The notes under the pieces were generated by a model. It worked only from the letters and a program-made list of their open reading frames with translations. It searched no databases and was not told the DNA's origin. DNA of 64,000 bases from positions 925 through 64,924 of the forward strand of contig JBCCXA010000009.1 of the NCBI GenBank assembly GCA_039192515.1. The letters are read 5' to 3'. This DNA comes from Verrucomicrobiota bacterium (GTDB lineage: Bacteria > Verrucomicrobiota > Verrucomicrobiia > Methylacidiphilales > JBCCWR01). Both the position numbers and the translations under genes were made by a program. This document shows, piece by piece, positions 5,701 to 31,088 of the stretch; the first letter of the stretch is position 1, and each line of letters begins with the position of its first letter.

Positions 5701-5919
5701 TGGTTCATCACGCTGCTCCCATTGAAAACCTGTGCGTAGGATTTCATGCCGATGTAAAGCTCTTTCCCAGGATTGCTTAAGGATTTGCGTGTCGAGATTT
5801 CCTGACAAAGAAAGAACAATTTGGGGAATGTAGATTCCTTTTTCAGGAGCCAGTAGTGAGTGGAATAAAAGCCCTTGCTGTGTTGAGGATAATGGGTAGA
5901 TGTCTGCGATATTTGGCAT
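2746..5919 (-). CDS. NRPS, C(DCL-type)-A(Ser)-PCP
   Basis: IYPLSSTQQGLLFH and HHLILDGWS (DCL-like). A-domain cores YTSGSTGKPKG and YGPTE. Specificity code read by eye is DVWHISLIDK (Ser-type). PCP GGHSL. No TE or R domain; ends EDHIEIEI. Confidence 0.92.
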   Translation of the reverse strand: MPNIADIYPLSSTQQGLLFHSLLAPEKGIYIPQIVLSLSGNLDTQILKQSWERALHRHEILRTGFQWEQRDEPFQVVYHEVSLQWIELDWSDSPKQQDKKLKALQAANQSEGFNLQSAPLTRFHLIRLSDSSFKLVWCYHHLILDGWSAGQVLQEVLTDYFALAKGLTVSPIQASRSRYKDYIAWLLKQNAEQAEKFWTESLVAESFSSSSHQENAKKFGEESFVFSSEQSNAIRQWTQTHQVTLHTLLLGIIGILLGRYQDSRNVTLGHTVSGRPSNLPDSTKMVGLFINTLPVSLSLLPQAPIITWLKDLQKHQADASSYEYVALRDIQSWTNQGNPLFDWLFVLESYPLPAGSNEKQDNLRLDGTEFDEWTHFPMTLLAIENDTLTIKAKYQEPRFSQSMIHNLFSHLNEILQQILCNPDQPLSSITLYTQEERKIVQSWNATEQNWKEHALSITEPIEQFAESAMTALRFRGINLNYKEIHEKASQLAALLKKTGAGPEQPVAVYLERSLELPITLLAILKANAVYFPLDPSYPKARLQSLLEESTPVAIVTDQRQNLQELKTNCRVIDWANEKELEKTLSIPHIPSNPNPDQALYLIYTSGSTGKPKGVINTHQALANRLLWMQEQYSLTSSDRVLQKTPVGFDVSVWEFFWPIMTGATLVLAEPEQHKDGQALVELIQKEKITVLHFVPPMLEVLLEISEVVKCTCLRLIICSGEKLNPSTVAKCKELLPNTSLQNLYGPTEAAIDVTHWSCDQGQAMTQVPIGKPIANTSIHILDQDLNELPTGVEGELYIGGIGLARGYAQRADLTAERFIPNPYYKQNTPSSSEVLYRTGDLARYAADGTIEFLGRNDHQIKIRGQRIELAEIEYPLNEHPSVKQSHVSQLPSSRELVAYLVLEDKSISIAENPRAHFEGYLKAHLTEAMIPHRWVVLSKFPLTTNGKIDHKALPDPISSKQEFQPLENSTQETIAKIWSEMLNIETIGANAHFFELGGHSLSATRANTRLRKEFDVELPLRVHFECPILLDLANHIDALLISSNLSEKSEDHIEIEI

Positions 5920-9600: not shown

Positions 9601-12600
9601 GGCTTTTAGGCCTTGGGCGACAAGATTAGATTTTAGATCGAGTTCACGATAAGTAATTACATCTTGATTCCAGCGAACTGCGATAGCAGTAGGCTGAAGT
9701 GTTGCTTGTGTTTGAAATGCGTCGATAAAGGTCCCGGATTTGAAAGACTTTTGTTCCCCCTTTGAGTATCTAAGGATACAAGATCGTTCCTCTTCAGGAA
9801 TAAAAGCCAAGGATGTAACAGGTTTTTCTGAGTTTTGAGTAAGGGCTTCAAGAAGCTTTTTGAAATGCTTAGCCATGCGTTCAATACGTGCATGAGCAAA
9901 CAAATCACTTCGGTATTCAAACCGTCCTGTTAATGAACCATCGTTATTTTGTGACATCGAGAGCGTGAGATCAAATTTCGCAGTAGAGGCGGGAAGGGGG
10001 AAAGGTTCTATGGTAAGGTCGTGGTTGGTAAATTGAGGAATCTTAGTGTCAGTTTGCCAAAGGAAAAATGTCTGAAAGACAGGTGAGTGGTCCCAACTTC
10101 TCTCAGCTCCTAAAGAAGAGACTATTTGCTCAAAGGGTACACTTTGATTCTCAAAGCCATCCAAGACTGTTTGTCTAACGAGTCTTAAAATATCATGGAA
10201 ACTTTGATGTTTTTGAATGCGAGTGCGTAGCGCTAGTGTATTGACAAACATGCCAACGACTTCTTCCCATTCAGAATTGGGGCGGTGTCCTATGGGACTG
10301 CCTATGATCAAATCTGTTTGATTCGTGTAACGGAACAAGAGTACTTTGAAAGCAGCTAGCAAGGCCATATAGAGTGTAGCCTCATGATCTTTTGACAGAT
10401 TACTGATTTGCTTAGTTAGTTCCCTCGAGATAGTAAAACGCAATTCTGAAGCAACTGGTTTTGCATCAGTATGACGAGGGAAATCAAGCGGCAAATCAAG
10501 AGTGGGGGGTAGATTTTCTAGCTGTTTTTTCCAATATTGTAAGCTGTCGGCTTGGTCTCCTTTTTGCTCATTATAGGCGTAGTCACTATATTGAAGTTTT
10601 AATGTTTTTAGCTCCTCTTTTTGGGCGATAGTTAAGAGATCTCTTAATAAAATTCTTAAGGACCAAGCATCACCGATTAGGTGAGGGATAACTAATAAGA
10701 TAATATGTTGATTAGGTTGTGATTTAAAACAGGAAATTCTTAAAAGGGGTGTATCTGAAAGGTCGAAAGGTTTGTAAGCTATCTTTTGTAATGCGTTACG
10801 AATCTCTTGCTGTCTTTTTTCTTCAGGTAGATGGCTTAAGTCTAAATAATTTAATGAAGGTAGCTTGGCTTTATCTTGCAATACTGGCTTGGGTTTTCCT
10901 GCTTGGTCAGCTGGAAAAGATGTATGAAGTACTTCGTGACGTTGGCAAAGTGTCTGCAGTGCTTGCTCAAGTTGATTGGTATTGAGTGATCCTTGGACTT
11001 GGATTGCTACTGGAATATTATACGAAGGGTTGTCGGGATCAAGTTGTGTAAGAACCCATTGCCTTTGTTGTGCGTGTGATAGAGTAATCGGAATGTTTTT
11101 TGGGCGTTTCTGAATAGGCTTGCTTTGTATTCTATGTGAAGAATCAATAGCTTGGGCAAATTCATGAATAGTAGGATCATCAAATATTGTACGAAGCGGG
11201 AGTTCAACGGAAAAATTTGATCTAACTTGCGCGATCATACGAGCTGCAAGAAGGGAGTGTCCACCAGCTTCAAAAAAGTTAGTGTTACCGTTTGTTAAAG
11301 GGCGTTCTAAAAGTTCTCCCCAAATCTTAGCAAGCTTTTCTTCCGTTTCGGTGACTAAGGGTGAGATAATTTCTTCAAGCTCATGTTGGAATTGTTCTCC
11401 AGGCTGAGGGAGTTTTTTTCGGTCAACTTTGCCATTGGGGTTTAAAGGAAAGGTTTTCAGAACTTGGTATTCTGAGGGAATCATATAACTTGGAAGTTGT
11501 TTGACCAAAAATTGTTTGAGCTTAGGAATAGATAAGTCGGTACTGGGAGATTGGCACCAAGCAACAATGCGCTTTTGTGTTTCAGATCCATGAAGAGATA
11601 CCACAACTGCTTCAATATTTGGGAATTCTAATAGCCTGGATTCAATCTCACTGAGTTCGATGCGGAAGCCTCGTAATTTTATTTGGTGATCGATTCTCCC
11701 CAAAAACTCAAGTGTGCCGTTTGCTTTGAACCTGGCGCGGTCACCTGTGGCATAAAGTCGAGTGCCTCTAAAACTTGTGAACTTCTTCGCTGTTAGACTT
11801 TCTTGCTTGTGATAGCCAGGGCTTAGACCAAGACCTGATAAGTAGAGCTCTCCAGGGATACCAATAGGCATTTCATTATATTGCTCATCCAAGATATGGA
11901 ACCCTGTATTGGCTAATCTTCCACCAATGGGAATACTTTCCTGGTTTAGATGGCCTTTCGTAATTTCTAAAGCACCAGACCAAATGGTGGTTTCTGTTGG
12001 CCCATAAAGATTCCAAAGTGCAGAACCAGAGGCAAAAAGTTGTTTAGCTAAGCTGGAGTCTAAAGCTTCTCCACCACATAATATCTTGAGGTCAGGTGAG
12101 CCTCTCCAGCCGCACTCAAGGAGTAGCCTCCAGCTTGCAGGTGTTGCCTGCATGATGGTGGCTTGGGATTTCTCAAGCAGATGGGTTAAAGCAAATCCAT
12201 CCGAAGCTGTTTCTTCATCAGCAATCCAAAGATGTGCACCAACCATCAGAGGCAATAACAATTCCAATGTTGCGATGTCAAAGGCAATAGTTGTGACAGC
12301 TAAAAGAGTATCTGATGCATTTATGCCAGGTGCCTCAGCCATCGACTCAAGAAGGTTGACGAGGCTCCCATGCTGAATGGGAACGCCTTTGGGTTTTCCA
12401 GTGCTTCCACTGGTGAAAATAATATAGGCAAGAGCGTCTTGTTTTACTGTGATAGGTAGAGGTTCTTTTGAATTTTGGGCAATGAGGGCGGCATCACAGC
12501 TGAGATCAATTACTCGAATACTTTTGTCCGATGATGGAGGTGAGTTACCATTTACAATGATTGTTTTTGCTTCCGAGTCCTCCAGAATCATCTTGAGTCG

Positions 12601-14355
12601 TTCTTCGGGGTGTGATGGGTCCAGCGGCACATAGGGGGATCCACTTTTAAGTATGGCAAGAAGCGAGATCACAAGTTGTTCCGAGCGTGGCAAGCAAAGA
12701 GCGATAGGTGAATTTGAGTTTTGGCTTTGAGAGTGTAGGTAATGGGCAAGTTGATTAGACTTATTTTCTATTTCTTCATAAGTGTAGTGCTGTTTATCAA
12801 AACTAACTGCGGTATCTTTAGGCTTGAGTTGAACTATTTGAGAAATTAATTCATGGATACTTAAGGAAGAAATTTCTTTGGCTGTGCAGTTCCAATTATT
12901 AATCTGTTGCTGCTCTTTGGGGGTAATGAGATTGTGCTTGGAGATAGCTTGGTCAGGAGCATTTACGGCTGCATGTAAGAGAAGCTTAAGATGTTCTGCA
13001 AGCCGTGAAATGGTTTCTTGGTCAAACAAGTCGACGTTGTATTCCAAAAATCCTTGATAACCGTTTTTGGTTTCTCCTACTTCTAGGCTCAAGTCAAAGC
13101 GAGAGCTTATTTTGTCTGGCGCAATGGATTCAAAGTGTAAGGATTGCTTGGCTTTTCCATGGGAGTCTGACTCGGTCTCAGTTCTTAGCAAAAATTGAAC
13201 TTGGAATAGGGGGTTATGGCTCAATTGGCGGTCAATCTTTAAAACATCCACCACTTGTTCGAAAGGGATTTGTTGATGTTGGAAGGCTTCGAGAACTTCT
13301 TTGTGTGTGTTGTTTAGCCATTGACGGAAAGTCCATTGAGAAGTTGGCTGACATCGGAAGACTAGATTGTTGACGAAAAGCCCTATAAGGTTGCGTGTCT
13401 CCTCTCGTTCACGATTAGAAACAGTGGAACCAATACAAAAGTCTTCTTGGCCTGAATAACGAAATAAAAGAGCTTGTAAGATAGAGAGTAGTGCACTGAA
13501 GCATGTCGTACGTTCTGCTTTTGCTAACAAAGCTAAAGCTTCCGAATCCTTTTTTGAGAATTCAATAGGTAGGCGTGATCCATTGAAAGTTTGGCGTTTT
13601 AGCCTAGGACGGTCTGATGGAAGTTTGAGTAGAGGGGAGACACCGTCTAATTTTGTTTTCCAGTAATCGAGTTCAGATTGCAATTTGTCTTGTTGGCTTT
13701 CTTGCCAAACGGCATAGTCGACATATTGGATTTCTAAGGGTGGCAGTTTACTTTTTTCGTTTGAGAGATAGCAGCCGTAGATATATTGCAATTCTCCCAT
13801 AAGGACGCGAAGTGACCAAAAATCAGCAATGATGTGATGAATGACGAGGTGGAGAAGCGTACAACCGCAATCATCCTTACCTAGTTTGGCTCGAATCAGG
13901 GGCAGCTCAGATAGAGTGAAAGGGGATTGGTAAAGTTGTTCTATATCGTTGGCATGGCCCGATCGTAATGCAGGCAATACATACTGTGGTTCAATGATTT
14001 GCCAAGGTGTTCCTTCTTCGGAAATGAAGCGAGTACGCAAAATTTCATGGCGAGAAATGATATCATTAAAGGACTTATAAAGAATCGTTTCGTTAACCTC
14101 ATCTGCGATTTTAAGTGTCGCAGGGATATGATAAACTGTTAAGCCAGGTTGAAGCTGGTCAATAAACCAAAGCCTTTGCTGGGCTGGAGATAGTGGGAAT
14201 CGTTTTTTTTTGTGCGACGCTTTTGAAGTCTTAGTGTCAGTAGATTTTTCAGCAAGAAGTTTAGCTAGAAGCTGGCGCTTTTCTTCAGCACTCAGCTTGG
14301 ACAGATCTGCTTTCTCATGGGCAGATTTAGAAAGTAAATTGTTCTCGTCCTTCAT
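6661..14355 (-). CDS. NRPS, C-A(Gly)-PCP-C-A(Asn)-PCP-E
   Basis: Codes read by eye: DILQLGLIWK (Gly) and DATKVGEVGK (Asn-type). PCPs GGHSL and GGDSI. The terminal E domain has HHLLIDGISW, EGHGR and RTVGWLTS. Start placed at ATG 14355 (AGGA RBS upstream), overlapping the upstream gene's stop. Confidence 0.92.
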   Translation of the reverse strand: MKDENNLLSKSAHEKADLSKLSAEEKRQLLAKLLAEKSTDTKTSKASHKKKRFPLSPAQQRLWFIDQLQPGLTVYHIPATLKIADEVNETILYKSFNDIISRHEILRTRFISEEGTPWQIIEPQYVLPALRSGHANDIEQLYQSPFTLSELPLIRAKLGKDDCGCTLLHLVIHHIIADFWSLRVLMGELQYIYGCYLSNEKSKLPPLEIQYVDYAVWQESQQDKLQSELDYWKTKLDGVSPLLKLPSDRPRLKRQTFNGSRLPIEFSKKDSEALALLAKAERTTCFSALLSILQALLFRYSGQEDFCIGSTVSNREREETRNLIGLFVNNLVFRCQPTSQWTFRQWLNNTHKEVLEAFQHQQIPFEQVVDVLKIDRQLSHNPLFQVQFLLRTETESDSHGKAKQSLHFESIAPDKISSRFDLSLEVGETKNGYQGFLEYNVDLFDQETISRLAEHLKLLLHAAVNAPDQAISKHNLITPKEQQQINNWNCTAKEISSLSIHELISQIVQLKPKDTAVSFDKQHYTYEEIENKSNQLAHYLHSQSQNSNSPIALCLPRSEQLVISLLAILKSGSPYVPLDPSHPEERLKMILEDSEAKTIIVNGNSPPSSDKSIRVIDLSCDAALIAQNSKEPLPITVKQDALAYIIFTSGSTGKPKGVPIQHGSLVNLLESMAEAPGINASDTLLAVTTIAFDIATLELLLPLMVGAHLWIADEETASDGFALTHLLEKSQATIMQATPASWRLLLECGWRGSPDLKILCGGEALDSSLAKQLFASGSALWNLYGPTETTIWSGALEITKGHLNQESIPIGGRLANTGFHILDEQYNEMPIGIPGELYLSGLGLSPGYHKQESLTAKKFTSFRGTRLYATGDRARFKANGTLEFLGRIDHQIKLRGFRIELSEIESRLLEFPNIEAVVVSLHGSETQKRIVAWCQSPSTDLSIPKLKQFLVKQLPSYMIPSEYQVLKTFPLNPNGKVDRKKLPQPGEQFQHELEEIISPLVTETEEKLAKIWGELLERPLTNGNTNFFEAGGHSLLAARMIAQVRSNFSVELPLRTIFDDPTIHEFAQAIDSSHRIQSKPIQKRPKNIPITLSHAQQRQWVLTQLDPDNPSYNIPVAIQVQGSLNTNQLEQALQTLCQRHEVLHTSFPADQAGKPKPVLQDKAKLPSLNYLDLSHLPEEKRQQEIRNALQKIAYKPFDLSDTPLLRISCFKSQPNQHIILLVIPHLIGDAWSLRILLRDLLTIAQKEELKTLKLQYSDYAYNEQKGDQADSLQYWKKQLENLPPTLDLPLDFPRHTDAKPVASELRFTISRELTKQISNLSKDHEATLYMALLAAFKVLLFRYTNQTDLIIGSPIGHRPNSEWEEVVGMFVNTLALRTRIQKHQSFHDILRLVRQTVLDGFENQSVPFEQIVSSLGAERSWDHSPVFQTFFLWQTDTKIPQFTNHDLTIEPFPLPASTAKFDLTLSMSQNNDGSLTGRFEYRSDLFAHARIERMAKHFKKLLEALTQNSEKPVTSLAFIPEEERSCILRYSKGEQKSFKSGTFIDAFQTQATLQPTAIAVRWNQDVITYRELDLKSNLVAQGLKAKGIESGNTVGLKLPRTPDLVIAVIAVMKIGGIYVPIDPQLPKARQDYMTENAGCTLVLDSLAALPLTKNELPLPALRNNLSCYILYTSGSTGKPKGVTVSHEGLMHYLHHALESYPYTEGWGSPVQSSIGFDATITSLLAPLLTGKAVHLLPEENVILALSEVMQTGPSVVKLTPAHLSALEPIFPKDLATDQLPKAIVVGGEALTAGHVKFWRENYPQVRIFNEYGPTETVVGCCIYEVQEKNLTYENIPIGLPIANTQLYVLNESLNLQPIGIAGELYISGSGVAQGYWNQQELTKEKFLPNPFASNPSVGAIMYRTGDQALLRQDGILEYLGRYDEQFQFKGFRIEPGEIESVLRSHKGIKDACVVLRKNQLVAFVESDISEDKLIQFLSEQLPQQIIPSAIRAIKKLPLTSNGKIDRGALPDLENLTSARIYSPRNHCETQLLAIWKTVLGVEKIGIKDNFFQRGGDSILILQVIAKAQQEGISFTPRDLFQHPTIEGLATVAQVGQNHTQEHLPEDQEIVVPLTPIQEWFFKLPLNHPNHWNQSILLSILEPLNIDQLEQAAHTLYRQHPALRSIYTKTNGSWKQTYTPIPKKAPFTKIVETTDEPQKKIEEVAASIQSGFNLTNGPLWHLVYFELNANTKSPCRRLLIVCHHLLIDGISWRILLFDLQNFYAQIGKIGSAELMPPSSTVSKWVEDLNRRAFKGTEKTWKQIEENSLQSPLPVDDPSGKIFMGEAETASLIINEDATAKLLNEVPKNYKIKVDELLLAALARTVTSWTKHHSLGIQLEGHGRQQGDSNLNLSRTVGWLTSLFPVSFPTNTNQTLDDSLKSVKEAFHQLPDEGLSYGVLRGYAKSSLPSIRFNYLGQTDQLLNNSSFFGRATESSGKARHPEDKRDVFFDINAIISEKTLKIYWMYNPSLHQSKTIQTLVERLEKEIKELTDFCINPQSGSGYSESDFSLMDFKPGELDQLLKDL

Positions 14356-17300
14356 GATTATTTTCCTGATCTGCTGGAGTAAGAGATGCGATCTGTTGTT
14401 TCCGGTCGATTCGTTTGCTAAGCGTAGATACAGTAGGTGCATCAAAGAGGTCGATTACGGTAAGTTCGACTCCAAATGTTTCTACAACTTTGGCGATCAG
14501 TTGGGTTACTAAAAGCGAATGTCCACCGAGCTCGAAGAAATTTTCTTCGACTCCAATCTCATCTATTTCCAGCGTAGCGGTAAAAATATCGGCAAGTTTG
14601 ATTTCAGTAAGTGTTTGCGGAGGTGTTCTGACTGTTACTCGATTATCATTTGGTTCCGGTAGTGCTTTTTCGTCAAGCTTTCCATTCGGAGTAAGAGGTA
14701 GTTCATCTAGCCAAATGAAGGCAGAAGGAATCATGAATTTGGGCATTTTTTGTGAGAGATATAATTTAATTTCCTCATCACTTTCGTGTTGTTTCTTGTG
14801 GGGAATTGCATAAGCCACGAGTCGCTTATTACCCTTATCAGATGTTTTGACCCTAACGAGGCCAACCTTGATGTCTGGATGTGTTTCTAAAACAGTTTCT
14901 ATTTCTTGTAGCTCAATGCGGTAGCCACGGATTTTTGTTTGGTGATCAGTTCTTCCCAGAATTTTAATTCGTCCATCAGAAAGGTACGAAGCAAGATCTC
15001 CACTTTTATAAAGTAGTGGGATATTGTAGTTACGTCCTTTGACCGGAGGAAATGGATTCGGAATAAATCTCTCTGCTGTAAGTGATGGACGATGATGGTA
15101 TCCACGAGCGAGACCTATACCCCCAATATGAAGTTCACCAACAACTCCTGGTGGGCATATTTCCAAAGAGTCATTTAGTACGTATAATTGTTTATTTGCA
15201 CTAGGTGTGACTGTGGGTGTGAGTGGAGCACCATTTCCGCAGGTTACCATACTAGCATTGACACTTGTCTCTGTAGGACCGTAAGCGTTGATGAATTTTC
15301 GGCCTTGGCTCCAGTGCTCAATTAACTCCTGTGGGGGCGCTTCACCTCCCACTAGAACCATCTTCAGTGAAGGATATTTATGTGCAGGAAGAGCATTTAG
15401 GGCAGATGGTGTTATGGTGATATGACTTACCTGGTGCTTATTAATCAAATCGCGCAGTGAGGGGCCGGGAAGTAAGTTTTCGGCTGGTGCAAGGAGTAGC
15501 TTAGCTCCAGCGGCGAGTGTCATAACAAATTCAGGAACAGAGCCATCAAAACTGAATGAGAAAAATTGAAGAATACAATCATCTGAGGTTATCTCACAAA
15601 CCCGAATTTTATCCTCTGTTAAGTTAACAAGTCCGCGATGTTGAATAAGTGTGCCTTTAGGTTTTCCAACGGAACCTGAAGTATAGATAAGATAGGCTAG
15701 ATTATCAGGTTGGACATTTGTTTTTGGATTTTTTGAAGAATAAGATGAGAGTGAGATTGTGTCTAGATTGATACGAGTCAGAGTTTTTTCAACTGAATCC
15801 TCAATAGTGAAATCACCGGTGGTAATGAGTGCTGATGAACCTGAGTCGGATAAAAGGAAGCGGAGCCGTTCTTCGGGGTAAGTGCGATCAAGAGGTAAGT
15901 AGGCAGCTCCAGCTTTTAGAACAGCAAGTAATGAAATGACCATTTCAAATGAGCGCTCTACAGCTATGCCAACGACACTTTCGGGTTTAATTCCCTTTTC
16001 GATGAGGAAATGAGCTAGCTGATTGGCACGTTCATTTAGCTTTCGATAGTTGAGTTCGGTAGAGCTTCCGTTGTCAAAAACTAGAGCAATAGCTTCAGGT
16101 GTGCGTTCGACTTGAGCTTCAAAAAGCTGGTGATAGCAAAGTGAATCTTTGAATGGCTTATCATGCGAATTCCATGATTGAAGATAAGCTTGTTCTTCTG
16201 TTTTAGTAAAAATGGAAAGCCCGGAAATGGGTGAAGTTGAGTTTTGGATAATCGATTTTAAAAGACCAAGAAAATGGTTGGACATTCTATCAACAGTCTC
16301 TCTTTTGAAGAGATCGGAGTTGTATTCGAATCCTCCAACAAGTCCTTCATCTGTTTCATAGAGATCGAGTCCTAAATCATGTTTGGCAGAAATCTGTTCT
16401 TGTGCAAGGGGCTTAAGACTTAAGCCTGGGAGCTGTAGTTCTGAGGTGGAAGCTCTCTCTAACTGAAATTTTACTTCGAAGATAGGACTTCTACTCATAT
16501 CCCGTTCAGGCTGAATCGCTTCAACGAGTTTTTCAAAGGGAAGGTCTTGATTTTCGTAAGCAGATAGAGTTGTGGAACGAACTTGTTTTAGTGTGTCTAT
16601 AAAGCTTGCTGTCGGAGAAATTTGAGTTCGTATGACAATGGAGTTGACGAAAAAGCCTATCAAGCTTTGGACTTCGTATCGGTGCCTATTGGCAATGGGG
16701 CATCCGACTAGGAGGTCATTTTGTCCAGTGTAGCGGTTCAAAAGTAATTTGTATGCGGTTAGCAAAACCATGAATAGGCTCGCCGATTGGTGCTGGCCAA
16801 TTTCTCGAAGTTGTTGAGTTATTTTATCAGGAATATTGAAGTGAACCATATCACCATTCGAGGTTTGCATTCTCTGGCGCGGGTAGTCAGTGGGTAGGTC
16901 AAGAGTTGGAAGTTCTCCAGAGAGTTGTTTTTTCCAATAATCTAATTGGTTTTTGAGTCCTGCATCATCCAAGGACTTGTGTTGCCAGATAGCAAAGTCA
17001 GCATATTGGATGGGAAGAGGAGTAAACTCAGGTTTAGTTCCTAAGAGGTGCGAGCGATAAGCCTGAACCAGTTCCTTGATTAGAACTTCAAAAGACCAAC
17101 CGTCAGTAATTATATGATGAAAACAAAAAAGGATCACAAATTTTTCATCCTTTATTTGATAAGCTGATGCTCTGAAAAGAGGTGCTTGATCTAGGGAGAA
17201 GGGGGTTGTTGCCATGATCTCAATTTCCTCCTTAATATGAGACTCAGGGCTTGGCTGGTCGCGGTGGTCATCAAAGATAAAATCGATAATTGCTCGGCTG

Positions 17301-17740
17301 AGAATTTCTTGAACTGGTTCACCTTTAATTGAAATAAAACGGGTTCGTAGTATTTCATGTCGTTCTATGAGTGTGTTTAGACTCTCTTCTAGAATTTCTA
17401 GATCTAAAGTACCTTGCAGCTCTAGAGCAAAGGGGACATTATAGGTCCAGGATTCAGGTTGCATTTCTTGCAGAAACCAGAGTCTTTGCTGCGAAAATGA
17501 GAGTGGAATTTTCTGTGGGCGAGGGTCACAACGCTCAATTTGAGCTGTTTTCGGCGTGTCTCTGGGAGCCGATAAAAAGGAAATAATTTCGGCTTTTTGC
17601 TGAGAAATTTGCTCTTTAAACTCATTAATAATCTTGGCAGAACCGCTGATTTTCAATTTGCCTTTAACGACCTGTAGGTTAATACCCCGATTTTGTAAGT
17701 CTGCTAAAAATGAAGTAATATTGGAGCTTTTAGCTTTCAA
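14327..17740 (-). CDS. NRPS, N-terminal docking domain-C(LCL)-A-PCP, substrate unclear
   Basis: LSFSQQRLWFL, HHIITDGWS, YTSGSVGKPKG, YGPTE, GGHSL. Code read as DGPTLGAVNK. The N-terminus ITSFLADLQNRGINLQVVKGKLKISG resembles a beta-hairpin (TubC-N type) docking domain. TTG start. Confidence 0.92.
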   Translation of the reverse strand: MKAKSSNITSFLADLQNRGINLQVVKGKLKISGSAKIINEFKEQISQQKAEIISFLSAPRDTPKTAQIERCDPRPQKIPLSFSQQRLWFLQEMQPESWTYNVPFALELQGTLDLEILEESLNTLIERHEILRTRFISIKGEPVQEILSRAIIDFIFDDHRDQPSPESHIKEEIEIMATTPFSLDQAPLFRASAYQIKDEKFVILFCFHHIITDGWSFEVLIKELVQAYRSHLLGTKPEFTPLPIQYADFAIWQHKSLDDAGLKNQLDYWKKQLSGELPTLDLPTDYPRQRMQTSNGDMVHFNIPDKITQQLREIGQHQSASLFMVLLTAYKLLLNRYTGQNDLLVGCPIANRHRYEVQSLIGFFVNSIVIRTQISPTASFIDTLKQVRSTTLSAYENQDLPFEKLVEAIQPERDMSRSPIFEVKFQLERASTSELQLPGLSLKPLAQEQISAKHDLGLDLYETDEGLVGGFEYNSDLFKRETVDRMSNHFLGLLKSIIQNSTSPISGLSIFTKTEEQAYLQSWNSHDKPFKDSLCYHQLFEAQVERTPEAIALVFDNGSSTELNYRKLNERANQLAHFLIEKGIKPESVVGIAVERSFEMVISLLAVLKAGAAYLPLDRTYPEERLRFLLSDSGSSALITTGDFTIEDSVEKTLTRINLDTISLSSYSSKNPKTNVQPDNLAYLIYTSGSVGKPKGTLIQHRGLVNLTEDKIRVCEITSDDCILQFFSFSFDGSVPEFVMTLAAGAKLLLAPAENLLPGPSLRDLINKHQVSHITITPSALNALPAHKYPSLKMVLVGGEAPPQELIEHWSQGRKFINAYGPTETSVNASMVTCGNGAPLTPTVTPSANKQLYVLNDSLEICPPGVVGELHIGGIGLARGYHHRPSLTAERFIPNPFPPVKGRNYNIPLLYKSGDLASYLSDGRIKILGRTDHQTKIRGYRIELQEIETVLETHPDIKVGLVRVKTSDKGNKRLVAYAIPHKKQHESDEEIKLYLSQKMPKFMIPSAFIWLDELPLTPNGKLDEKALPEPNDNRVTVRTPPQTLTEIKLADIFTATLEIDEIGVEENFFELGGHSLLVTQLIAKVVETFGVELTVIDLFDAPTVSTLSKRIDRKQQIASLTPADQENNHEGREQFTF

Positions 17741-17859: not shown

Positions 17860-19890
17860 ATGAAAAGTATAAATGAAACATTATATGATCACTTTCGCAA
17901 GCTTTTTGAGATTGAGTCTAAATCTAAACAAGAGGCTTTTTTAGTTTACAACTCTAATTATTCGGAAGGGGAATGGGAAAAACAATATGACGTTTTTACC
18001 TACTCGGACCTGTATGAGAGGGTTATGATTATTTCTCAGCACATGAGGGAAAAAAAATTGCATGGGCAGATTTTAATTGCACAGGATACGGGTATCGAAT
18101 TTGTAGCTTCTTTTTTGGCCTGTCTTTTTACTGGAAGGATTGCCGTGCCCATTCCCAAGCCAAAGATGGCAAAAGAGGGGCAGAGGTGGGTGCATGTAGC
18201 AAAGGATGCTGGGGCAGTTGCAGTATTATCCGATATGAAGGCCCAGCAATTTTTCCGACCTCTAAATGGCTTGGAATGTATTTGTACGGCGGAGCTAACC
18301 GAAAAAGCAGAAATGAATCTGGAAAGGCCTCGGCTAGAAGATGTGGCCTTTTTGCAATACACCTCAGGTTCTACAGGGTTGCCAAAGGGAGTCATGGTGA
18401 CGCATGCAAATATCATGCATAATCTATCTGCAATTCAGCAGCGTTTTGGCCATACCGAGGATAGTAAGGGGGTGATATGGCTTCCGCCGCATCACGATAT
18501 GGGCCTTATTGGGGGGATTTTGCAGCCGATTTTTGTTGGCTTTCCTGTGGTATTGATGTCTGCGAGCACCATTGTAAGAGCTCCTTATAAGTGGCTAGAA
18601 GCTATTCATCAATTCAAAGCGACAACCAGCGGGGGGCCTGCCTTCGCCTACCAACTTGCTGCTCAAAGGATAACTCCTGAAAACAAGCAATTACTGGACT
18701 TGTCATCCTGGGAACTAGCATTTGTCGGTGCAGAAACAGTTCGGGCAAATGTTTTGCAAGAATTTGCAACTGCATTTGTAGAGTGTGGTTTCAATCCGAA
18801 AGCTTTTCTACCTTGTTATGGCATGGCGGAGGCTACCTTAATGGTCAGTGCGCCAGAAAAAGGAACGGGTTGGCGCCTAGCTCAAGCGAAGCAGGCGGGA
18901 GAAGTGCCACGAGTTTCTTGTGGGCATGTCTCTGAGGGGATACAGGTATTGATTGTTGACTCAGACAATAAAATCGAGAAAGAGAACGGAGAAATAGGTG
19001 AGATTTGGGTTTCAGGTTCGAGTGTTGCCAGAGGGTATTGGAATAACGAACAAGCGACCCAAGATATCTTTAGAGCAAGTCTGTTTTCGTCGCTAAGCTC
19101 TGAGAACTATCTAAGGACCGGTGATCTTGGCTTTCTCGATCAAAATGAACTAGTGATCTGTGGCAGGCTCAAGGATTTGATCGTGATTCATGGTCAAAAT
19201 TACATACCTACGGACCTTGAGGAGTCTGCAGCAAAAGCGATAGGTCTGAATGCTAGTTCGATCGTAGCATTTGCTATTGAAAATGGGATAGAAGAACAGG
19301 TCGTCATGGTTTATGAAATGCGGCCGAGTCAAAGAAATGGGCGGTCATGGGAAGAAATATCTATGAACGTCTATGATTGTATTCTTAGCGAGTGGGCTTT
19401 AGCAATTGCTTATTGTATAGCTGTGAATCCGGTCAGTTTGCCTCGAACAACTAGTGGTAAATTGCAAAGAAGGCAGTGCTGCCAAAATTTCCAAGAAAAA
19501 AGATTGAGCACTTTGTTTGAGCAGAGTTTTCTTGGAGATGATACCGCGGGCGACTTACTTGATCTTCCTCAGGATCAGGAGTCATTCAACCACTTTGTTT
19601 GTGATCAGTTTGCCAGAGTATTGGGACTAAGTGGGAGTCAACTTGATCACCGTAAGGGCTTTTTTGAAATGGGACTTACTTCCGTGACCGGTATGGAATT
19701 AAAAGCTCGCTTAGAAAGGAGTCTCAAAATGGAGCTCCCTGCCACTCTTATAATTGATTATCCAAATCTTGAGACGCTTCTACTTTATCTAGGGAACCAG
19801 CTATTTGATAAAAGAGAAAAATCTGAAAACTATTTTGAAGTAGTGGACAAGCAACTGGACGAGTTAGAAGCCTTGCTAGATGATTCTTGA
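17860..19890 (+). CDS. Fatty acyl-AMP ligase (FAAL) fused to ACP
   Basis: FLQYTSGSTGLPKGV, WLPPHHDMGLIG, FLPCYGMAEATL, LRTGDLGF, LPRTTSGK. C-terminal ACP FFEMGLTS. Confidence 0.92.
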   Translation: MKSINETLYDHFRKLFEIESKSKQEAFLVYNSNYSEGEWEKQYDVFTYSDLYERVMIISQHMREKKLHGQILIAQDTGIEFVASFLACLFTGRIAVPIPKPKMAKEGQRWVHVAKDAGAVAVLSDMKAQQFFRPLNGLECICTAELTEKAEMNLERPRLEDVAFLQYTSGSTGLPKGVMVTHANIMHNLSAIQQRFGHTEDSKGVIWLPPHHDMGLIGGILQPIFVGFPVVLMSASTIVRAPYKWLEAIHQFKATTSGGPAFAYQLAAQRITPENKQLLDLSSWELAFVGAETVRANVLQEFATAFVECGFNPKAFLPCYGMAEATLMVSAPEKGTGWRLAQAKQAGEVPRVSCGHVSEGIQVLIVDSDNKIEKENGEIGEIWVSGSSVARGYWNNEQATQDIFRASLFSSLSSENYLRTGDLGFLDQNELVICGRLKDLIVIHGQNYIPTDLEESAAKAIGLNASSIVAFAIENGIEEQVVMVYEMRPSQRNGRSWEEISMNVYDCILSEWALAIAYCIAVNPVSLPRTTSGKLQRRQCCQNFQEKRLSTLFEQSFLGDDTAGDLLDLPQDQESFNHFVCDQFARVLGLSGSQLDHRKGFFEMGLTSVTGMELKARLERSLKMELPATLIIDYPNLETLLLYLGNQLFDKREKSENYFEVVDKQLDELEALLDDS

Positions 19891-19892
19891 TC

Positions 19893-22800
19893 ATGAATAA
19901 ACCACAGGAGGTATCTACCCAATATAAAGAACGCTTAGAGCGTGCGATGACACTTATTGAACGACTCAAAGGAAAGCTATCACAACAGAACCAGAGCTCT
20001 GCATCCACTGAGCCAATTGCCATTGTAAGTATGGCATGTCGGTTTCCTGGCAGTGTAGCAGATCCTGAGGGGCTGTGGGAATTGTTAGAAAATGGACGTG
20101 ATGCTATTACGCAAGTGCCTTCGGATCGGTGGGATGCTGAGGAACTATATGATGGAGCTCCGGCTGTTCCGGGAAAAGTCATTAACAAGCAAGGTGGCTT
20201 CATTGATAAAGTAAAGGAATTTGATCCCCTATTCTTTGGAATATCGCCCAAAGAGGCACATACTATGGATCCTCAACAGCGGATATTAATGGAGGTTTCT
20301 TATGAGGCACTTGTCCGCTTAGGTATGAATCCCAAACAAGCTTCAAGTATTGAGGCTGGAGTTTTTGTTGGAGTGAGTGGCACGGACTATGCCAGACATT
20401 TATCTCAGCTTTCAGGAGAGCAAATAGATCCTTATTTAGCTACAGGAAATTCTGCAAGTGTGTTAGCGGGACGCCTTTCTTACGTGCTTAGAATGACGGG
20501 TCCAAGTCTTAGTATAGATACCTCGTGCTCGTCTTCTTTGGTAGCTGTTCATTTGGCTTGCCAGAGTCTTCAGAATCAGGAATGCGAACTTGCTTTAGCC
20601 GGCGGTGTGAATTGCATTCTGACGCCGGAAGTAAGTATCGCCTTTTCTCAGGCTCGGATGCTTTCGCCGAGAGGGCGTTGTCATACCTTTTCAAGTAAGG
20701 CAGATGGTTTTGTGCGAGCAGAAGGTTGTGGGATGGTTGCTCTCAAAAAGCTATCTAAAGCACGAGTTGATGGAGATCAGGTTCTTGGGATTATTCGCGG
20801 TTCGGCTATCAACCAAGACGGAGGGAGTGGGGGTCTTACAGTTCCCAATGGGCACTCCCAACAAAAGCTTATTCAATCTGCTTTAAAGACATCAGGAGCA
20901 TCACCAGAAGATCTTTACTATCTAGAAGCTCATGGCACTGGAACCGAGTTGGGAGACCCCGTCGAGCTGAATGCGTTGAGTGAAGTCTTTAAAGAGAGCC
21001 ATTCTCCAGAACGTCCACTTTTGATTGGGTCAATAAAAACTAATCTTGGGCATATGGAAGCTGCAGCAGGCATAGGGGGGTTGATGAAAGTAGTTCTTTC
21101 TATGCAGCATGGAATGTTACCTAAGCATCTCCATTTTTCGGAACCGACTCCTCATGTAAAATGGGATAAGATTCCAATCAAAGTGACTGACCAAAAAGTG
21201 GAATGGCCTAGAGGGTCTTCTTCTCTAGCGGGAGTGAGTTCTTTCGGTTTTAGTGGCACCAATGCTCATGTTATTTTAGAACGATCAGAGGGCTCTCTAA
21301 AAAATTTAGAGCCAGTTCCTTCTACTTCAAATCATAAAAGAAGGTATTGGGTAGATATACCTAAAAACAAGAAAAGACGCCCATTACTTTCTCATCCCTG
21401 GCTGCAAGAAATGCTTTCTGTGGCACGCATTAACTCGAAGCATCTTGTTGTTTCTCAAAGTCTCTTTCGTGATGATGTTCTGAAACAACACCAAGTTCTT
21501 GGACAAGCTGTTTTTCCAGGGGTTGGTTTTCTCGAATTGCTATCCGCTGCATTCAAACATGTTTATGGATCTAAGAATATTTCCTTAAAGGATGTGAGCT
21601 TTGCTCGGGTACTATCATTGGATTCTGAGATGCCAGTTCAAATTGTTCTCAAGCAAGATACCGCGGAAGTTCTGCAACAAACTGAAACAGGTGAATGGCA
21701 AACATTGTGTGTTACGATGCTAGATCAAAGCTATCAAAAGGTTCACAATTTATCCATAAGTGATTTTCCTAGGTATGAGCTTTCTGAGGTGGCGCCAAGC
21801 CATGTTTATGAGCGGCTAGCAAGCCAAGGGGTTTCTTATGGGGAAGCATGGAAATTAATTGAATCTCTCCAAACAAAAGATGGCTATATTCGGGCTCATA
21901 TTAAGGCTCCTCAAGAGTCAGGAGGCTTTCATTATCACCCGTTTCTATTAGATGCTATTCTACAGACAATGGCTGCTGGCTTCTTGGAGAAGGAAGATGA
22001 TAAATATACCTATATTCCAGAGGGCGTAGGCCAAGTTATCTTTCATGTCGAAAAACTCTGTGGTGAGGTATTTACCGTGTTAGGAAAGATGAAATCTGGA
22101 GAGGGTTGGGTTAGTGCAGATTTTCTTTTGCAAGACGAAGAGGGAGCCGACTTAGTAACTTTCAAAGATATTCGTTTGCGTCCTCTCACTAAAAACTGGA
22201 TTACCAGAGTCAATCGGGCTTCGGTTAAGGATTGGTTTTATTCAGTGGACTGGAAGCTCGATAATATTCCCTCTAGGGAAAAAGGACACACTCCAGAACA
22301 ATTAGCTCGTCAGCTTATGGATGATGCAAAAGAGGCTCTCGAGGTTGAAGAAATCAAACGGTACCGAGAGGGATTACCTAACTTAGAGCGAGCTGCGGCT
22401 CAGCTGGCAGGAATTATTTTATCTAAGGTAGACTCGGAAAAAGTTATTCCGGAACAAAAAGTGCTGTGGAGGCATTTGCATAATAGAGCCCAAACAGAAA
22501 TTTTAGAAACCTCAACGTTTACCGACGAATTGCAGGCTGTCTTCCCGCAGGAAATCAAGCTGATCCAACGTTGCGCAAGTGAAGCTGTTGCCGTGGTGGA
22601 AGGAGACCAGGATCCTATGGAAGTTCTTTTTCCTAAAGGTGATAGCTCCGAATTAACCTGGCTCTACCAAAAATCAGACGCAGCACAACTGCTCAACAAA
22701 CAAATGTGTCTGAGCTTTGCTCAAATACGAAAGGGTCTAGGGCGTCCTCTTAAAATTCTGGAAGTTGGTGGGGGAACCGGCGGAACTACTGCGTTACTTA

Positions 22801-25800
22801 TCGAACTCTTGGGTAAGGATGATGAGTATGTTTTCACGGATGTTTCACCCTTTTTAGTAGACGAAGCCAAACAAAAATTTGGTCATTCAGAACAAATGCT
22901 TTTCAAAACACTCGACCTAAGTCAAAGCCTATTAGAGCAAGGATTTGATAGAAATACGTACGATTTGGTCATCGCGGCGAATGTCTTGCATGCAACTCCT
23001 GACATAGATAGCTCTGTTCGCAAGATTGGAGAACTTCTTTTGACTAACGGATATTTGCTTTTATTAGAGGGAGTTAAACCACTCCTTTGGCTAGATCTTA
23101 TATTCGGTTTGACCAAAGGCTGGTGGTCTTTTAACGACGAGTGGAGAGTCGATTATCCTCTTTTGTCCAGCACTACATGGCATAAGCTCTTTAATAGCAT
23201 GGGTTGGGAATCATCAACGATTACAGTTGGCGATTTGCCTCAAGCCGTCATGGTTGCTCAAAAAAGGGCGGAAAAAAATGAGAAGCTAGTCATATGGGCT
23301 GAGCATCGTCAAGGAGCTGGAACATTTGCCGAGCAAATACAAGCCGGAGTTCGGAACCTGTTGTCGCAGGTTAAAGCATGTCTAAGTGGGAAGCCACCCT
23401 GGCCGCAACTTGTGCTAGTGACTCAGGGTGCCACTGATTTACACGCTTTTCACCCTGAGCAAGCAACTCTATGGGGATTATCAAGAACCATTGAACTGGA
23501 ATTTCCTGGACTACAATGCCTGCGCATCGATCTCGACCCCACGAAAACGCTTGCTGAACAGAGAGATTTAGTCAATCAAGAACTAGAAAACTTGAGTCGA
23601 GGCTCGGTTCGGTTCCGAGATGGAAAACGATATGTAGCAAGGTTGCAACACGCAGAAAAAATAGAGTCTCTAAAAATTCCAGAAACGGATGCTTACGAAC
23701 TGAAATTGGAGAATACGCCAACTCGTTCATTGACCCTTGCTGAAGTTGAGCGAGAAAAACCAATATGTGGTGATATCGAAATTCGTGTGCAGGCCGCTGG
23801 GATCAATTTTATCGATGGGTTAGATATTGCAGGTATGCTTCCTTTCGAAAGAGGTTGGTTGGGAGTTGAATGCGCGGGCGAAGTGGTGTCAGTTGGTGAT
23901 AGTGTCACTGATTTTAAGATAGGTGATAAAGTTATGGCATTGGCTCCACGGGCATTTCGCACTTATGTCAATGTACCATCTGTTCTAGTAGCAAAGTGGC
24001 CAAATAATATTAAGACCGCACAGGCTGCCGCTACATTGCCGGTTAATTTCCTGACAGCCCAGCGCGCTCTTTGCGATATAGCACATTTGAAAAAAGGAGA
24101 GTCTGTTCTTATTCATTCGGGTGCGGGAGGTACAGGGATGGCAGCCATTCAAGTCGCACAACATCTGGGAGCTACGGTTTATGCCACATCGAGCCGTGCT
24201 AAGTGGCCAGTTCTGAAGCGATTAGGCGTTAAGAATATTTTTGATAGCCGCAGTTTAGGCTTTGCTGTGGAAGTAATCAAAGCCACGCAGGGGCAAGGGG
24301 TTCAGGTTGTTCTTAACTCATTAACAGGTGACTATATTGAAAAAGGTCTTTCTATTTTAGCCAAGGATGGACGGTTTATTGAATTAGGAAAGCGAGGCAT
24401 TTGGACCAAGGAACAAATCGGTGAATTTCGATCCGATATTCAGTATCACATTGTGGATTTATTTTCTGAAAGTGAACAACGCATCAAGCTTTGGCGATCT
24501 GAGGGTAAAGGGGATTCTATTTTCAAGGGTTTGCTTCCAGTTCAGGCATTACCAGAAACTTCATTTCCTATTCAAGAGGCTCCTCGAGCTGTAAAGTTTT
24601 TCCAGCGTTCCCGCCATGTGGGAAAGGTAGTGCTAGATTTTGATCGGACCCAAAGTCCGGTTCGTCAAGATGCTTCTTATGTGATTACTGGAGGAGCTGG
24701 AGGGCTGGGGCTTGAAACAGCTCGTTGGTTGGTGGAGCAAGGCGCCAGGCACGTTTTGTTACTAGGCCGAAATATTCCAAAGTCGGATGATCCTAGATTA
24801 CTCATCATAAAAGAAGCCATTGAGAAGAATTGGGTGTGGTTTGAGAGTGCAGATGTTTCTGAGCGTGCTGCAGTTGAGGGAGTCTTGAAGCATGCTCAAG
24901 AACGTGCACCATTGCGCGGTATTTTTCATAGTGCGGGTGTCTTGTCTAATGCCACGATTCAGGAGTTATCTTGGGATGAGGTGAATTATGTTTTTGGTCC
25001 CAAGGTTTGGGGAGGTTGGCATTTGCATGAATTGACAGCTCATCTGGAGCTTGATTTATTTGTTTTGTATTCATCTGCAGCTTCTTTGCTCGGTTCTCCA
25101 GGCCAGGGAAATCATGTCGCAGCAAATGCTTTCCTGGATGCACTGGCGCATCATCGAAGATCACTCGGTTTACCTGCCCAAAGTTTCAATTGGGGAGCTT
25201 GGTCTCAGGTTGGATCGGCAGCCTCTCAGTCAACCCAAATGGAATTGGCAAAACGAGGGATTTCTATGATAGATCCTCAAAGTGGAATTAAATGCCTATC
25301 ACTTGCCCTCCAAAGGCCAGATTGTTGCCAGTTAGGGTTGGTTCGGGTTGACTGGAAAACTTTATTAAAAGCAGGTTTGTCTCTTGATCCATTTTTTGAA
25401 TATTTTGCTCGGTCCATATCAAAAGAAAGGCATGAAAATAAAGCATTAAAAACCGGGAAGGAAGGAGAATGGATTAAAGAATTAAAGAATCTTCCCAGAG
25501 GGCAATGGAGTCATTACCTAAACAAGAAAATTCGAGAAGAATTGGCTCAAGTCATCGGATTACAGGCTGGGGACTTGCCACCGGCTGACGCAGGATTTTT
25601 CGATCTTGGGGTGGATTCATTGATGAGTGTCGATTTAAAAAATCGGTTAGCGTTGTATCTGGCCACTGATATTTCTCCTACGCTTATCTTTCAGCATCCA
25701 ACCATCAGCGCTCTCGCACAAAAACTTACTGAGTTGTTAGAGAATCAAATGAATGTCTTAGGAAAAAACAAAATTCAAAGCAAACAATCGATTGATGTCT

Positions 25801-25916
25801 CTACTCTAAAACTAGATGACGATTCGGAGACAAAACTTTTAGTGTCCGAAGTTTCTGGCAAGGACATTGCCTCTGAGCTCTTAGCTCTTGAAGAGTTATT
25901 AGAGGAGTCCTCATAA
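19893..25916 (+). CDS. Type I PKS module KS-DH-cMT-ER-KR-ACP lacking an AT domain
   Basis: KS: DTSCSSS, HGTGT, KTNLGH. DH: HQVLGQAVFP and LLDAILQ. MT: LEVGGGTGG and ANVLHAT. ER: LIHSGAGGTG. KR: TGGAGGLG. ACP: FDLGVDSL. Only about 40 aa separate the KS end from the DH start, with no GHSxG. Confidence 0.9.
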   Translation: MNKPQEVSTQYKERLERAMTLIERLKGKLSQQNQSSASTEPIAIVSMACRFPGSVADPEGLWELLENGRDAITQVPSDRWDAEELYDGAPAVPGKVINKQGGFIDKVKEFDPLFFGISPKEAHTMDPQQRILMEVSYEALVRLGMNPKQASSIEAGVFVGVSGTDYARHLSQLSGEQIDPYLATGNSASVLAGRLSYVLRMTGPSLSIDTSCSSSLVAVHLACQSLQNQECELALAGGVNCILTPEVSIAFSQARMLSPRGRCHTFSSKADGFVRAEGCGMVALKKLSKARVDGDQVLGIIRGSAINQDGGSGGLTVPNGHSQQKLIQSALKTSGASPEDLYYLEAHGTGTELGDPVELNALSEVFKESHSPERPLLIGSIKTNLGHMEAAAGIGGLMKVVLSMQHGMLPKHLHFSEPTPHVKWDKIPIKVTDQKVEWPRGSSSLAGVSSFGFSGTNAHVILERSEGSLKNLEPVPSTSNHKRRYWVDIPKNKKRRPLLSHPWLQEMLSVARINSKHLVVSQSLFRDDVLKQHQVLGQAVFPGVGFLELLSAAFKHVYGSKNISLKDVSFARVLSLDSEMPVQIVLKQDTAEVLQQTETGEWQTLCVTMLDQSYQKVHNLSISDFPRYELSEVAPSHVYERLASQGVSYGEAWKLIESLQTKDGYIRAHIKAPQESGGFHYHPFLLDAILQTMAAGFLEKEDDKYTYIPEGVGQVIFHVEKLCGEVFTVLGKMKSGEGWVSADFLLQDEEGADLVTFKDIRLRPLTKNWITRVNRASVKDWFYSVDWKLDNIPSREKGHTPEQLARQLMDDAKEALEVEEIKRYREGLPNLERAAAQLAGIILSKVDSEKVIPEQKVLWRHLHNRAQTEILETSTFTDELQAVFPQEIKLIQRCASEAVAVVEGDQDPMEVLFPKGDSSELTWLYQKSDAAQLLNKQMCLSFAQIRKGLGRPLKILEVGGGTGGTTALLIELLGKDDEYVFTDVSPFLVDEAKQKFGHSEQMLFKTLDLSQSLLEQGFDRNTYDLVIAANVLHATPDIDSSVRKIGELLLTNGYLLLLEGVKPLLWLDLIFGLTKGWWSFNDEWRVDYPLLSSTTWHKLFNSMGWESSTITVGDLPQAVMVAQKRAEKNEKLVIWAEHRQGAGTFAEQIQAGVRNLLSQVKACLSGKPPWPQLVLVTQGATDLHAFHPEQATLWGLSRTIELEFPGLQCLRIDLDPTKTLAEQRDLVNQELENLSRGSVRFRDGKRYVARLQHAEKIESLKIPETDAYELKLENTPTRSLTLAEVEREKPICGDIEIRVQAAGINFIDGLDIAGMLPFERGWLGVECAGEVVSVGDSVTDFKIGDKVMALAPRAFRTYVNVPSVLVAKWPNNIKTAQAAATLPVNFLTAQRALCDIAHLKKGESVLIHSGAGGTGMAAIQVAQHLGATVYATSSRAKWPVLKRLGVKNIFDSRSLGFAVEVIKATQGQGVQVVLNSLTGDYIEKGLSILAKDGRFIELGKRGIWTKEQIGEFRSDIQYHIVDLFSESEQRIKLWRSEGKGDSIFKGLLPVQALPETSFPIQEAPRAVKFFQRSRHVGKVVLDFDRTQSPVRQDASYVITGGAGGLGLETARWLVEQGARHVLLLGRNIPKSDDPRLLIIKEAIEKNWVWFESADVSERAAVEGVLKHAQERAPLRGIFHSAGVLSNATIQELSWDEVNYVFGPKVWGGWHLHELTAHLELDLFVLYSSAASLLGSPGQGNHVAANAFLDALAHHRRSLGLPAQSFNWGAWSQVGSAASQSTQMELAKRGISMIDPQSGIKCLSLALQRPDCCQLGLVRVDWKTLLKAGLSLDPFFEYFARSISKERHENKALKTGKEGEWIKELKNLPRGQWSHYLNKKIREELAQVIGLQAGDLPPADAGFFDLGVDSLMSVDLKNRLALYLATDISPTLIFQHPTISALAQKLTELLENQMNVLGKNKIQSKQSIDVSTLKLDDDSETKLLVSEVSGKDIASELLALEELLEESS

Positions 25917-26693: not shown

Positions 26694-26706
26694 CTTTCTT
26701 CTCCTA

Positions 26707-27576: not shown

Positions 27577-27593
27577 GCCGAGAAAATACTTAA

Positions 27594-27612
27594 ACTGAGA
27601 CTCATGTGCAAT
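27594..27612. promoter_or_regulatory. Fur-like 19-bp operator
   Basis: ACTGAGACTCATGTGCAAT, 18 bp upstream of the 27576 start. 16/19 identical to the box at 32137. Confidence 0.55.
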
Positions 27613-27718
27613 AAGAAATTTAATTAATTAATGAAATACTTATTTAAACCACTGGATAGGACGTCTCGAGCTCGATAGACACCTGTAATGAAAAAGTCTA
27701 AGCTTATACTGAAAAGAT

Positions 27719-28498: not shown

Positions 28499-28533
28499 GA
28501 GTAGGATTTATGTATCGATCGGAATGTAAAGTT

Positions 28534-28552
28534 ATTGAGATTGATTTTCAAG
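28534..28552. promoter_or_regulatory. Fur-like 19-bp operator between divergent tonB and receptor
   Basis: ATTGAGATTGATTTTCAAG, an imperfect 9-1-9 palindrome. Confidence 0.5.
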
Positions 28553-28579
28553 TATTAAGGCCTTAATAATCCTTTCTTC

Positions 28580-30991: not shown

Positions 30992-31055
30992 TTTTTTGAT
31001 CAAAAATTTGGACTGATTGCAGGAGGTTAGACGGCGATTGAGCAATTTTATTGCT

Positions 31056-31074
31056 ATTGAGACTTAATCTCTTT
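31056..31074. promoter_or_regulatory. Fur-like 19-bp operator
   Basis: ATTGAGACTTAATCTCTTT, 14 bp upstream of ATG 31089. Confidence 0.5.
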
Positions 31075-31088
31075 ATACACGTTAGCGC

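Follow-up and report, generated by a model that had tools for sequence, protein, structure and literature searches.

We describe here a polyketide synthase (PKS) module without an integrated acyltransferase (AT) in a Verrucomicrobiota bacterium (assembly GCA_039192515.1); it is encoded in a 64,000-nt stretch of contig JBCCXA010000009.1, and this whole stretch is called the window below. The protein, P0001, belongs to a divergently transcribed hybrid cluster, in which a fatty acyl-AMP ligase (FAAL) joined to an acyl carrier protein (ACP) domain and the PKS are encoded on the forward strand and the nonribosomal peptide synthetase (NRPS) genes on the reverse strand. To judge from the comparison with its relatives, the AT has been precisely excised from this module. 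We regard it as somewhat probable that P0001 is a working reducing, C-methylating module of cyanobacterial-type cis-AT ancestry, from which about 430 residues have been removed and which would be loaded by FabD. The features of P0001 assigned by translation and Pfam are the following, in window positions.

19887..25916, + strand: AT-less PKS module KS-DH-cMT-ER-KR-ACP (P0001), a single frame of 2009 aa
20010..21281, + strand: ketosynthase (KS) domain, Pfam aa 42-417, with the Cys-His-His triad intact (DTSCSSS, EAHGTGT, NLGH)
21282..21392, + strand: fusion linker, consisting of a 17-aa spacer, HKRRYW (end of the former post-AT linker) and 14 aa before the DH
21393..22193, + strand: dehydratase (DH) domain, Pfam aa 503-769, with HxxxGxxxxP and DxxxQ present
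22722..23210, + strand: C-methyltransferase (cMT) domain, Pfam aa ~946-1108, with motif I LEVGGGTGG
23769..24635, + strand: enoylreductase (ER) domain, Pfam aa 1295-1583, with the NADPH site GAGGTGMAA
24672..25205, + strand: ketoreductase (KR) domain, Pfam aa 1596-1773, with HVAAN at the usual Tyr position
25527..25721, + strand: ACP domain, Pfam aa 1881-1945, with GVDSL, followed by a C-terminal docking tail

The start codon is probably the ATG at 19893, and the collection record of the protein (P0003) has 2007 aa; an exact look-up with the protein as translated from the window gave no entry.

The KS ends with NAHVILE (aa 459-465, nt 21261-21281), which is followed by the 17-aa spacer RSEGSLKNLEPVPSTSN, by HKRRYW (aa 483-488, nt 21333-21350) and then by the DH, in which HPWL begins at nt 21393 and HQVLGQAVFP occupies nt 21489-21518. 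The initial annotation, which was made from the letters of the window, had described this arrangement with a spacer of about 18 aa, and it holds with one residue fewer. No match to Acyl_transf_1 (PF00698) is found by Pfam in P0001, and the C-terminal extension of the KS (KAsynt_C_assoc) is matched only in the first 49 of its 111 positions, at aa 420-470. When P0001 is compared by BLASTP with P0203, a protein of 2612 aa from Oscillatoria sp. CS-180, residues 9-482 align with residues 5-477 of P0203 at 57% identity, and the alignment restarts at residue 477 of P0001 and residue 908 of P0203, where VPSTSNHKRRYW faces LPTYPFQRQRYW; beyond this gap the two proteins are colinear through DH-cMT (32% identity) and ER-KR-ACP (42%), on to the C-terminal docking tail. 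The KS of P0001 is 57-62% identical to those of its cis-AT relatives, and in the MAFFT alignment with the nearest of these relatives P0001 lacks one block of about 430 residues. This block comprises the KS-AT linker domain and the AT, together with the post-AT linker except for its last dozen or so residues. The flanking subdomain, which follows the KS of trans-AT PKSs and serves there as the AT docking site, is absent in P0001, the end of the KS and the RYW motif being 17 aa apart. The in-cis ER and the cis-AT domain order DH-cMT-ER-KR, both of which had been read from the window at the outset, are confirmed by Pfam and by the colinearity of this arm with cis-AT modules. An AlphaFold2 model of KS-linker-DH, made with a 6-sequence alignment, was poor (mean predicted local distance difference test score 47.5) and was not used.

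The ancestry of the KS was examined by IQ-TREE with 103 KS domains (LG+C20+F+G4) and, in a second analysis, with 60 KSs (LG+F+G4). In the 103-KS tree, the KSs of P0001 and of its orthologues P0124 and P0125, which are described below, form a clade with support of 100/100, and most KSs from proteins without any AT are placed far from it. The sister group of this clade is the pair of cis-AT KSs from P0203 and P0175 (100/98 with 103 KSs; ultrafast bootstrap 100 with 60 KSs), and both of these proteins are located in all-cis-AT lines behind FAAL-ACAD-ACP; the nearest solved single KS is that of cis-AT CurL (4mz0). In approximately unbiased (AU) tests, regrafting the P0001 clade beside the Gammaproteobacteria-type short-linker core on the maximum-likelihood backbone was rejected (p-AU 2.6e-11), and so was regrafting it beside P0187 (p-AU 7e-14), beside P0013/P0085 (p-AU 0.008) and beside a canonical trans-AT clade (p-AU 3e-66). 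The initial annotation had called the module cis-AT in style and had proposed KS phylogeny as a check; the trees bear this view out, in that the KS groups with cis-AT and not with trans-AT clades, and the colinear DH-cMT-ER-KR-ACP arm agrees with it. The forced union of the P0001 clade with the entire Gammaproteobacteria-type AT-less assemblage gave AU p = 0.505 in a whole-tree constrained test, p-AU 0.033 in a fast constrained search and p-AU 0.156 in a full constrained search with the 60 KSs, so that the first and the full search do not reject the union; the uniting branch in the full search had zero length. Because the backbone of the tree is weakly resolved, independence from the AT-less clade of Gammaproteobacteria/Legionellales type is favoured by these trees but not proven, whereas descent of the P0001 module from a cis-AT module is firmly indicated. 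A first FastTree tree, in which a crude AT label was used, had given the AT-less P0013/P0085 as sisters, and this placement has been superseded by the careful tree with better AT detection.

A rare residue in the KR provides an independent marker, which agrees with the cis-AT descent. The position of the catalytic Tyr is occupied by His in P0001 (aa 1743, GQGNHVAAN, window 25113-25115), and this His is common to the orthologues P0124 and P0125 and to the cis-AT sisters P0203 and P0175, the Tyr-to-His state having been found in 11 of the 317 KRs sampled. The proteins of the further cases that we inspected (P0137, P0169, P0227 and P0229) also have cMT and ER domains.

A search targeted at the junction (aa 436-575 of P0001) led to the two orthologues, which are full-length and come from independent assemblies (P0124 from Logan SRR31771853, P0125 from JGI 3300009550), and both carry the same KS-to-RYW-to-DH junction without AT. 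Their KSs are 65-68% identical to that of P0001, the identities of the respective domains ranging from 43 to 68%, and the three proteins have kept the KS triad, HxxxGxxxxP and DxxxQ of the DH, motif I of the cMT, the cofactor motifs of ER and KR, and DSL of the ACP. P0124 has the FAAL-ACP and the KS fused in one protein, and its NRPS genes show the same divergent layout. The organism carrying the orthologous locus L018 is related to the P0001 host, because its fumarase gene shares 79% identity with one in the P0001 genome and the NRPSs of the two share 49-57%. No orthologue of P0001 was found in 30 genomes of the same order, and no close relative in a scan of the genome contigs with P0001. A scan of this kind with EF-Tu had Verrucomicrobiota metagenome-assembled genomes as its best matches, at 80% identity, which points to this phylum, though with poor discrimination. 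In 400 genomes of the phylum, other contiguous junctions are only remote ones, in G215 (38% identity) and, more weakly, in G166 (34%). At the G215 locus (L103, G215:C1:2474541-2478200), from a member of the same class with a GC-rich genome, NAHVLIEE is followed by about 30 aa, YHRERF and HPLLG, so that the KS is joined to the DH, and this KS-DH lies within a multi-PKS region of about 40 kb. An independent cis-to-trans transition had been proposed for the window; the cis-AT descent in this proposal stands, and the loss of the AT is not a one-off in the P0001 genome but an older, conserved condition, which three or more orthologous clusters have in common.

We have also surveyed the ATs by which the ACP of P0001 could be loaded. 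Pfam scans of the open reading frames of at least 150 aa in the window found no AT, as the initial annotation had stated, and none was found by a six-frame PF00698 search and tblastn with AT queries on the whole contig that holds the window (C9, 105.7 kb); a discrete AT is absent also within 16-64 kb at all three orthologous loci, L018 and L019 included. The genome assembly (G000; 3.71 Mb, 107 contigs, 95.8% complete) contains six ATs, of which five are embedded in cis-AT PKSs (one on C2, two on C21 and two on C32) and one is free-standing (G000:C16:15106-16155), within a fabD-fabG-acpP-fabF operon (C16:12708-16155) and with TIGR00128 (fabD) as its best NCBIfam match. A weak AT-like tblastn match on C1 was rejected, being by sequence a phosphotriesterase-like protein and not an AT. 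The genome-wide search that had been suggested for extra ATs has thus found no free-standing AT besides FabD in this assembly. A 6.5-kb contig, C71, carries a fragment of a trans-AT-type PKS (C71:3-2075, - strand), in which a KS represented by its C-terminal half is followed by a flanking subdomain of about 170 aa, by a DH and by the beginning of a further region. The fragment runs off the contig and lacks an AT and the N-terminal half of the KS including the active-site Cys. Its GC content is 0.50, whereas that of the genome is 0.42, and the fragment could be relic, chimeric or mis-binned DNA.

FabD is the most likely loader of the P0001 ACP, and such loading is reasonable because the assembly contains no other free-standing AT and because recent experiments provide precedent (PMC12828459, PMC13096860). 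With the flanking subdomain lost, any loader would have to recognise the ACP itself. Several points weigh against loading by FabD in a working module. The TIGR00128 match of the free-standing AT scores 253.8 bits and thus stays under the cut-off, 260.9, the sequence having been cut at the first Met so that its N-terminus is missing. The genome is 95.8% complete and divided into 107 contigs, and with the C71 fragment present, a dedicated trans-AT could sit in unassembled DNA; action in trans is conceivable for each of the five embedded ATs (C2, C21 x2, C32 x2); and the KR, whose activity is putative, carries His where the catalytic Tyr normally stands.

We consider it unlikely that the P0001 ACP receives its malonyl group in trans from the embedded AT of a different PKS, on C2, C21 or C32, and not from FabD. 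Five such ATs are available, and at L018 the distance between the orthologous module and a KS-AT-KR PKS with a homologue on G000:C32 is about 9 kb; however, the two clusters at L018 are separated by the housekeeping fumarase gene and their counterparts are on different contigs in G000, so that the proximity looks incidental, and an embedded AT as a rule loads the module that contains it. No docking element for an AT is left after the P0001 KS. This second cluster at L018 (L018:17751-27668), beside the fumarase gene and the AT-less cluster, comprises the KS-AT-KR PKS and an NRPS with an oxidase domain, and its homologues on G000:C32:28581-40261 are 50-56% identical. We doubt also that a dedicated free-standing trans-AT, possibly accompanying a PKS of C71 type, is hidden in the unassembled part of the genome. 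The degree of completeness and the AT-less KS-flanking subdomain-DH fragment running off C71 leave room for such an enzyme, but the missing half of the C71 KS with its active-site Cys, the deviating GC content and the lack of a discrete AT within 16-64 kb at any of the three orthologous loci (0/3) speak against it.

The other genes of the cluster, in which the route of the acyl chain can be followed, were assigned by Pfam as follows.

17860..19890, + strand: FAAL-ACP loading protein P0002, 676 aa (AMP-binding, AMP-dom_DIP2-like, PP-binding)
14327..17740, - strand: NRPS 1, with a TubC-type N-terminal docking domain and condensation (C), adenylation (A) and peptidyl carrier protein (PCP) domains in the order C-A-PCP; 57.5% identity to the L018 counterpart
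6661..14445, - strand: NRPS 2, C-A-PCP-C-A-PCP and a third condensation-family domain; 49% identity to the L018 counterpart
2746..5919, - strand: NRPS 3, C-A-PCP
1948..2718, - strand: stand-alone thioesterase (PF00975)

The best NCBIfam matches of P0002 are fatty acyl-AMP ligase subfamilies, every one of them under its cut-off, and its domains indicate that a fatty acid is activated by this protein and then stays bound to the carrier domain of the same chain. The cluster as a whole has the order expected of a FAAL-primed lipopeptide line, from FAAL-ACP to PKS to an NRPS whose first catalytic domain is a C domain, and the docking order is consistent with it. A stand-alone protein with a B3/4 domain (a domain of the phenylalanyl-tRNA synthetase beta-subunit), without NCBIfam match, is encoded between two NRPS genes (5935-6642, - strand). 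PEP-CTERM proteins, a TonB protein and a TonB-dependent receptor are encoded directly downstream of the PKS (26007-33154), and no transporter or tailoring gene clearly tied to the lipopeptide cluster was seen in this interval. Far downstream, a giant open frame on the + strand (52065-63998), with 3978 aa in the window and an open 3' end, has zero Pfam matches.

According to the scheme that we propose, the FAAL-ACP protein would load a fatty acid, the KS of P0001 would accept the acyl chain, and the ACP of P0001 would be malonylated in trans by FabD (malonyl-CoA:ACP transacylase), acting directly on the ACP. After condensation, the cMT, KR, DH and ER could produce a saturated 2-methyl acyl chain that is two carbons longer, and the docking domains would pass this chain to the four-module NRPS and the thioesterase, giving an N-acyl tetrapeptide. 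The wider claim, that the clade represents a natural and evolutionarily stable minimal excision, in which the entire KS-AT linker domain has gone along with the AT and FabD loads without a docking element, is put forward tentatively, and we place its chances somewhat below even.

It is quite improbable that P0001 is instead a non-functional relic, skipped by a FAAL-ACP that gives its acyl chain directly to the first NRPS condensation domain. The missing AT, the lack of a dedicated loader nearby and the His in place of Tyr in the KR would be understandable in a relic, but the 2009-aa frame is uninterrupted, the KS, DH, cMT, ER, KR-cofactor and ACP motifs have been kept in three orthologues that have diverged to 43-68% identity per domain, the FAAL-ACP is fused straight onto the KS in P0124, the docking tails fit the order FAAL to PKS to NRPS, and the KR His occurs also in the AT-bearing sister modules. 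A missing AT produced by assembly or binning, as a collapsed or chimeric contig, which the initial annotation had named as a ground for refutation and which the fragmentation into 107 contigs might suggest, deserves hardly any credence, because P0124 and P0125 share the junction in other metagenomes, and the frame is continuous with both flanks colinear with relatives.

With intact cis-AT sisters, exact excision boundaries and three conserved orthologues, P0001 offers a clean evolutionary case; it suggests that a fully reducing module can dispense with its AT and with the preceding KS-AT linker domain as well, which bears on the origin of trans-loaded PKSs and, in PKS engineering, on the question of where modules can be cut. 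If the view of a minimal excision with FabD loading is correct, the clade would provide exact, nature-tested cut points for turning cis-AT modules into compact AT-less ones, as well as a datable bacterial cis-to-trans transition outside the classical trans-AT lineage. For genome mining, clusters of this kind should not be dismissed as broken, and the supply of the extender need not be encoded in the cluster.

The short junction itself is more widely distributed. Because giant multi-module proteins dominated an all-library search with the 140-aa junction, the hits were re-parsed, and 14 of 133 representative proteins from the top hits were found to have a short junction, all 14 being without any AT. 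The design found elsewhere consists of the KS end, 20-30 residues, F/Y-x-R-x-R-Y/F-W and the next domain, with no flanking subdomain. Short-linker AT-less PKSs are known to us from metagenome-assembled genomes of Gammaproteobacteria/Legionellales and from others (P0092, P0123, P0126, P0128-P0130, P0145, P0157 and P0187), and the clade of Gammaproteobacteria/Legionellales type is well populated, with a linker conserved as EEAPEQDLTQ.K..LPKT.FNRQRYW. These PKSs differ from P0001 in that their KSs group apart in the best-scoring trees, in being mostly multi-module, in having no cMT and in their distinct linker.

The closest relatives with an intact AT, P0203 (Oscillatoria sp. CS-180, GCA_028330965.1) and P0175, resemble P0001 in the sister KS, the colinear arm and docking tail, the KR His and the fatty-acid-primed context; they possess the KS-AT linker and AT of about 430 aa and belong to multi-module, all-cis-AT lines after FAAL-ACAD-ACP, whereas P0001 is a single module without AT, with a FAAL-ACP before it and an NRPS after it. 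Of the characters of cis-AT modular PKSs, P0001 has the KS phylogeny and the loop DH-cMT-ER-KR-ACP similar to that of fatty acid synthase, and lacks the integrated AT. Canonical trans-AT PKSs have a free-standing AT in the cluster, their ER is usually supplied in trans, and their cMT usually comes after the KR. In such PKSs, for example those for bacillaene and leinamycin, the KSs form clades of their own and are usually followed by a flanking subdomain (Piel 2010; Helfrich & Piel 2016). P0001 shares with them the lack of an integrated AT and the need for loading in trans, but it departs from them in three of four defining characters, namely the KS clade, the docking subdomain and the AT in the cluster, and its ER in cis and its cMT before ER-KR are also unlike theirs. 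For type I PKSs of algae, Shelest et al. (2015, PMC4661987) present a phylogeny which suggests that integrated ATs have been displaced, and that trans-AT lines arose there independently of those in bacteria; those PKSs are eukaryotic and multi-module, and neither an exact excision boundary nor an intact sister module is shown in that report.

The systems most similar in operation have been reported in 2025-2026. For the AT-less PipC, malonylation of the ACP by FabD has been demonstrated in a genome without a trans-AT (pseudotetraivprolide, Pseudomonas entomophila; PMC12828459), and FabD has been indicated as the trans-AT for BrnF (barnesin, Sulfurospirillum barnesii; PMC13096860). As in P0001, one AT-less PKS module stands in a lipopeptide-type NRPS-PKS line. 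In the PipC and BrnF systems, neither cluster nor genome was found to have a dedicated trans-AT, and FabD is the sole free-standing AT; for P0001, six ATs with FabD as the only free-standing one were found in an assembly that is 95.8% complete and holds the C71 trans-AT-type fragment. The KS of PipC is still followed by an AT docking domain, whereas P0001 has none; the loops of PipC and BrnF are KR or DH-KR, whereas that of P0001 is the full DH-cMT-ER-KR; and loading by FabD has been measured or indicated for PipC and BrnF, whereas for P0001 it is a proposal. AT-less modules and the moonlighting of FabD are already known, and the overall picture of AT-less PKSs is unchanged by P0001, which is a variant of this known theme and not a new kind of system.

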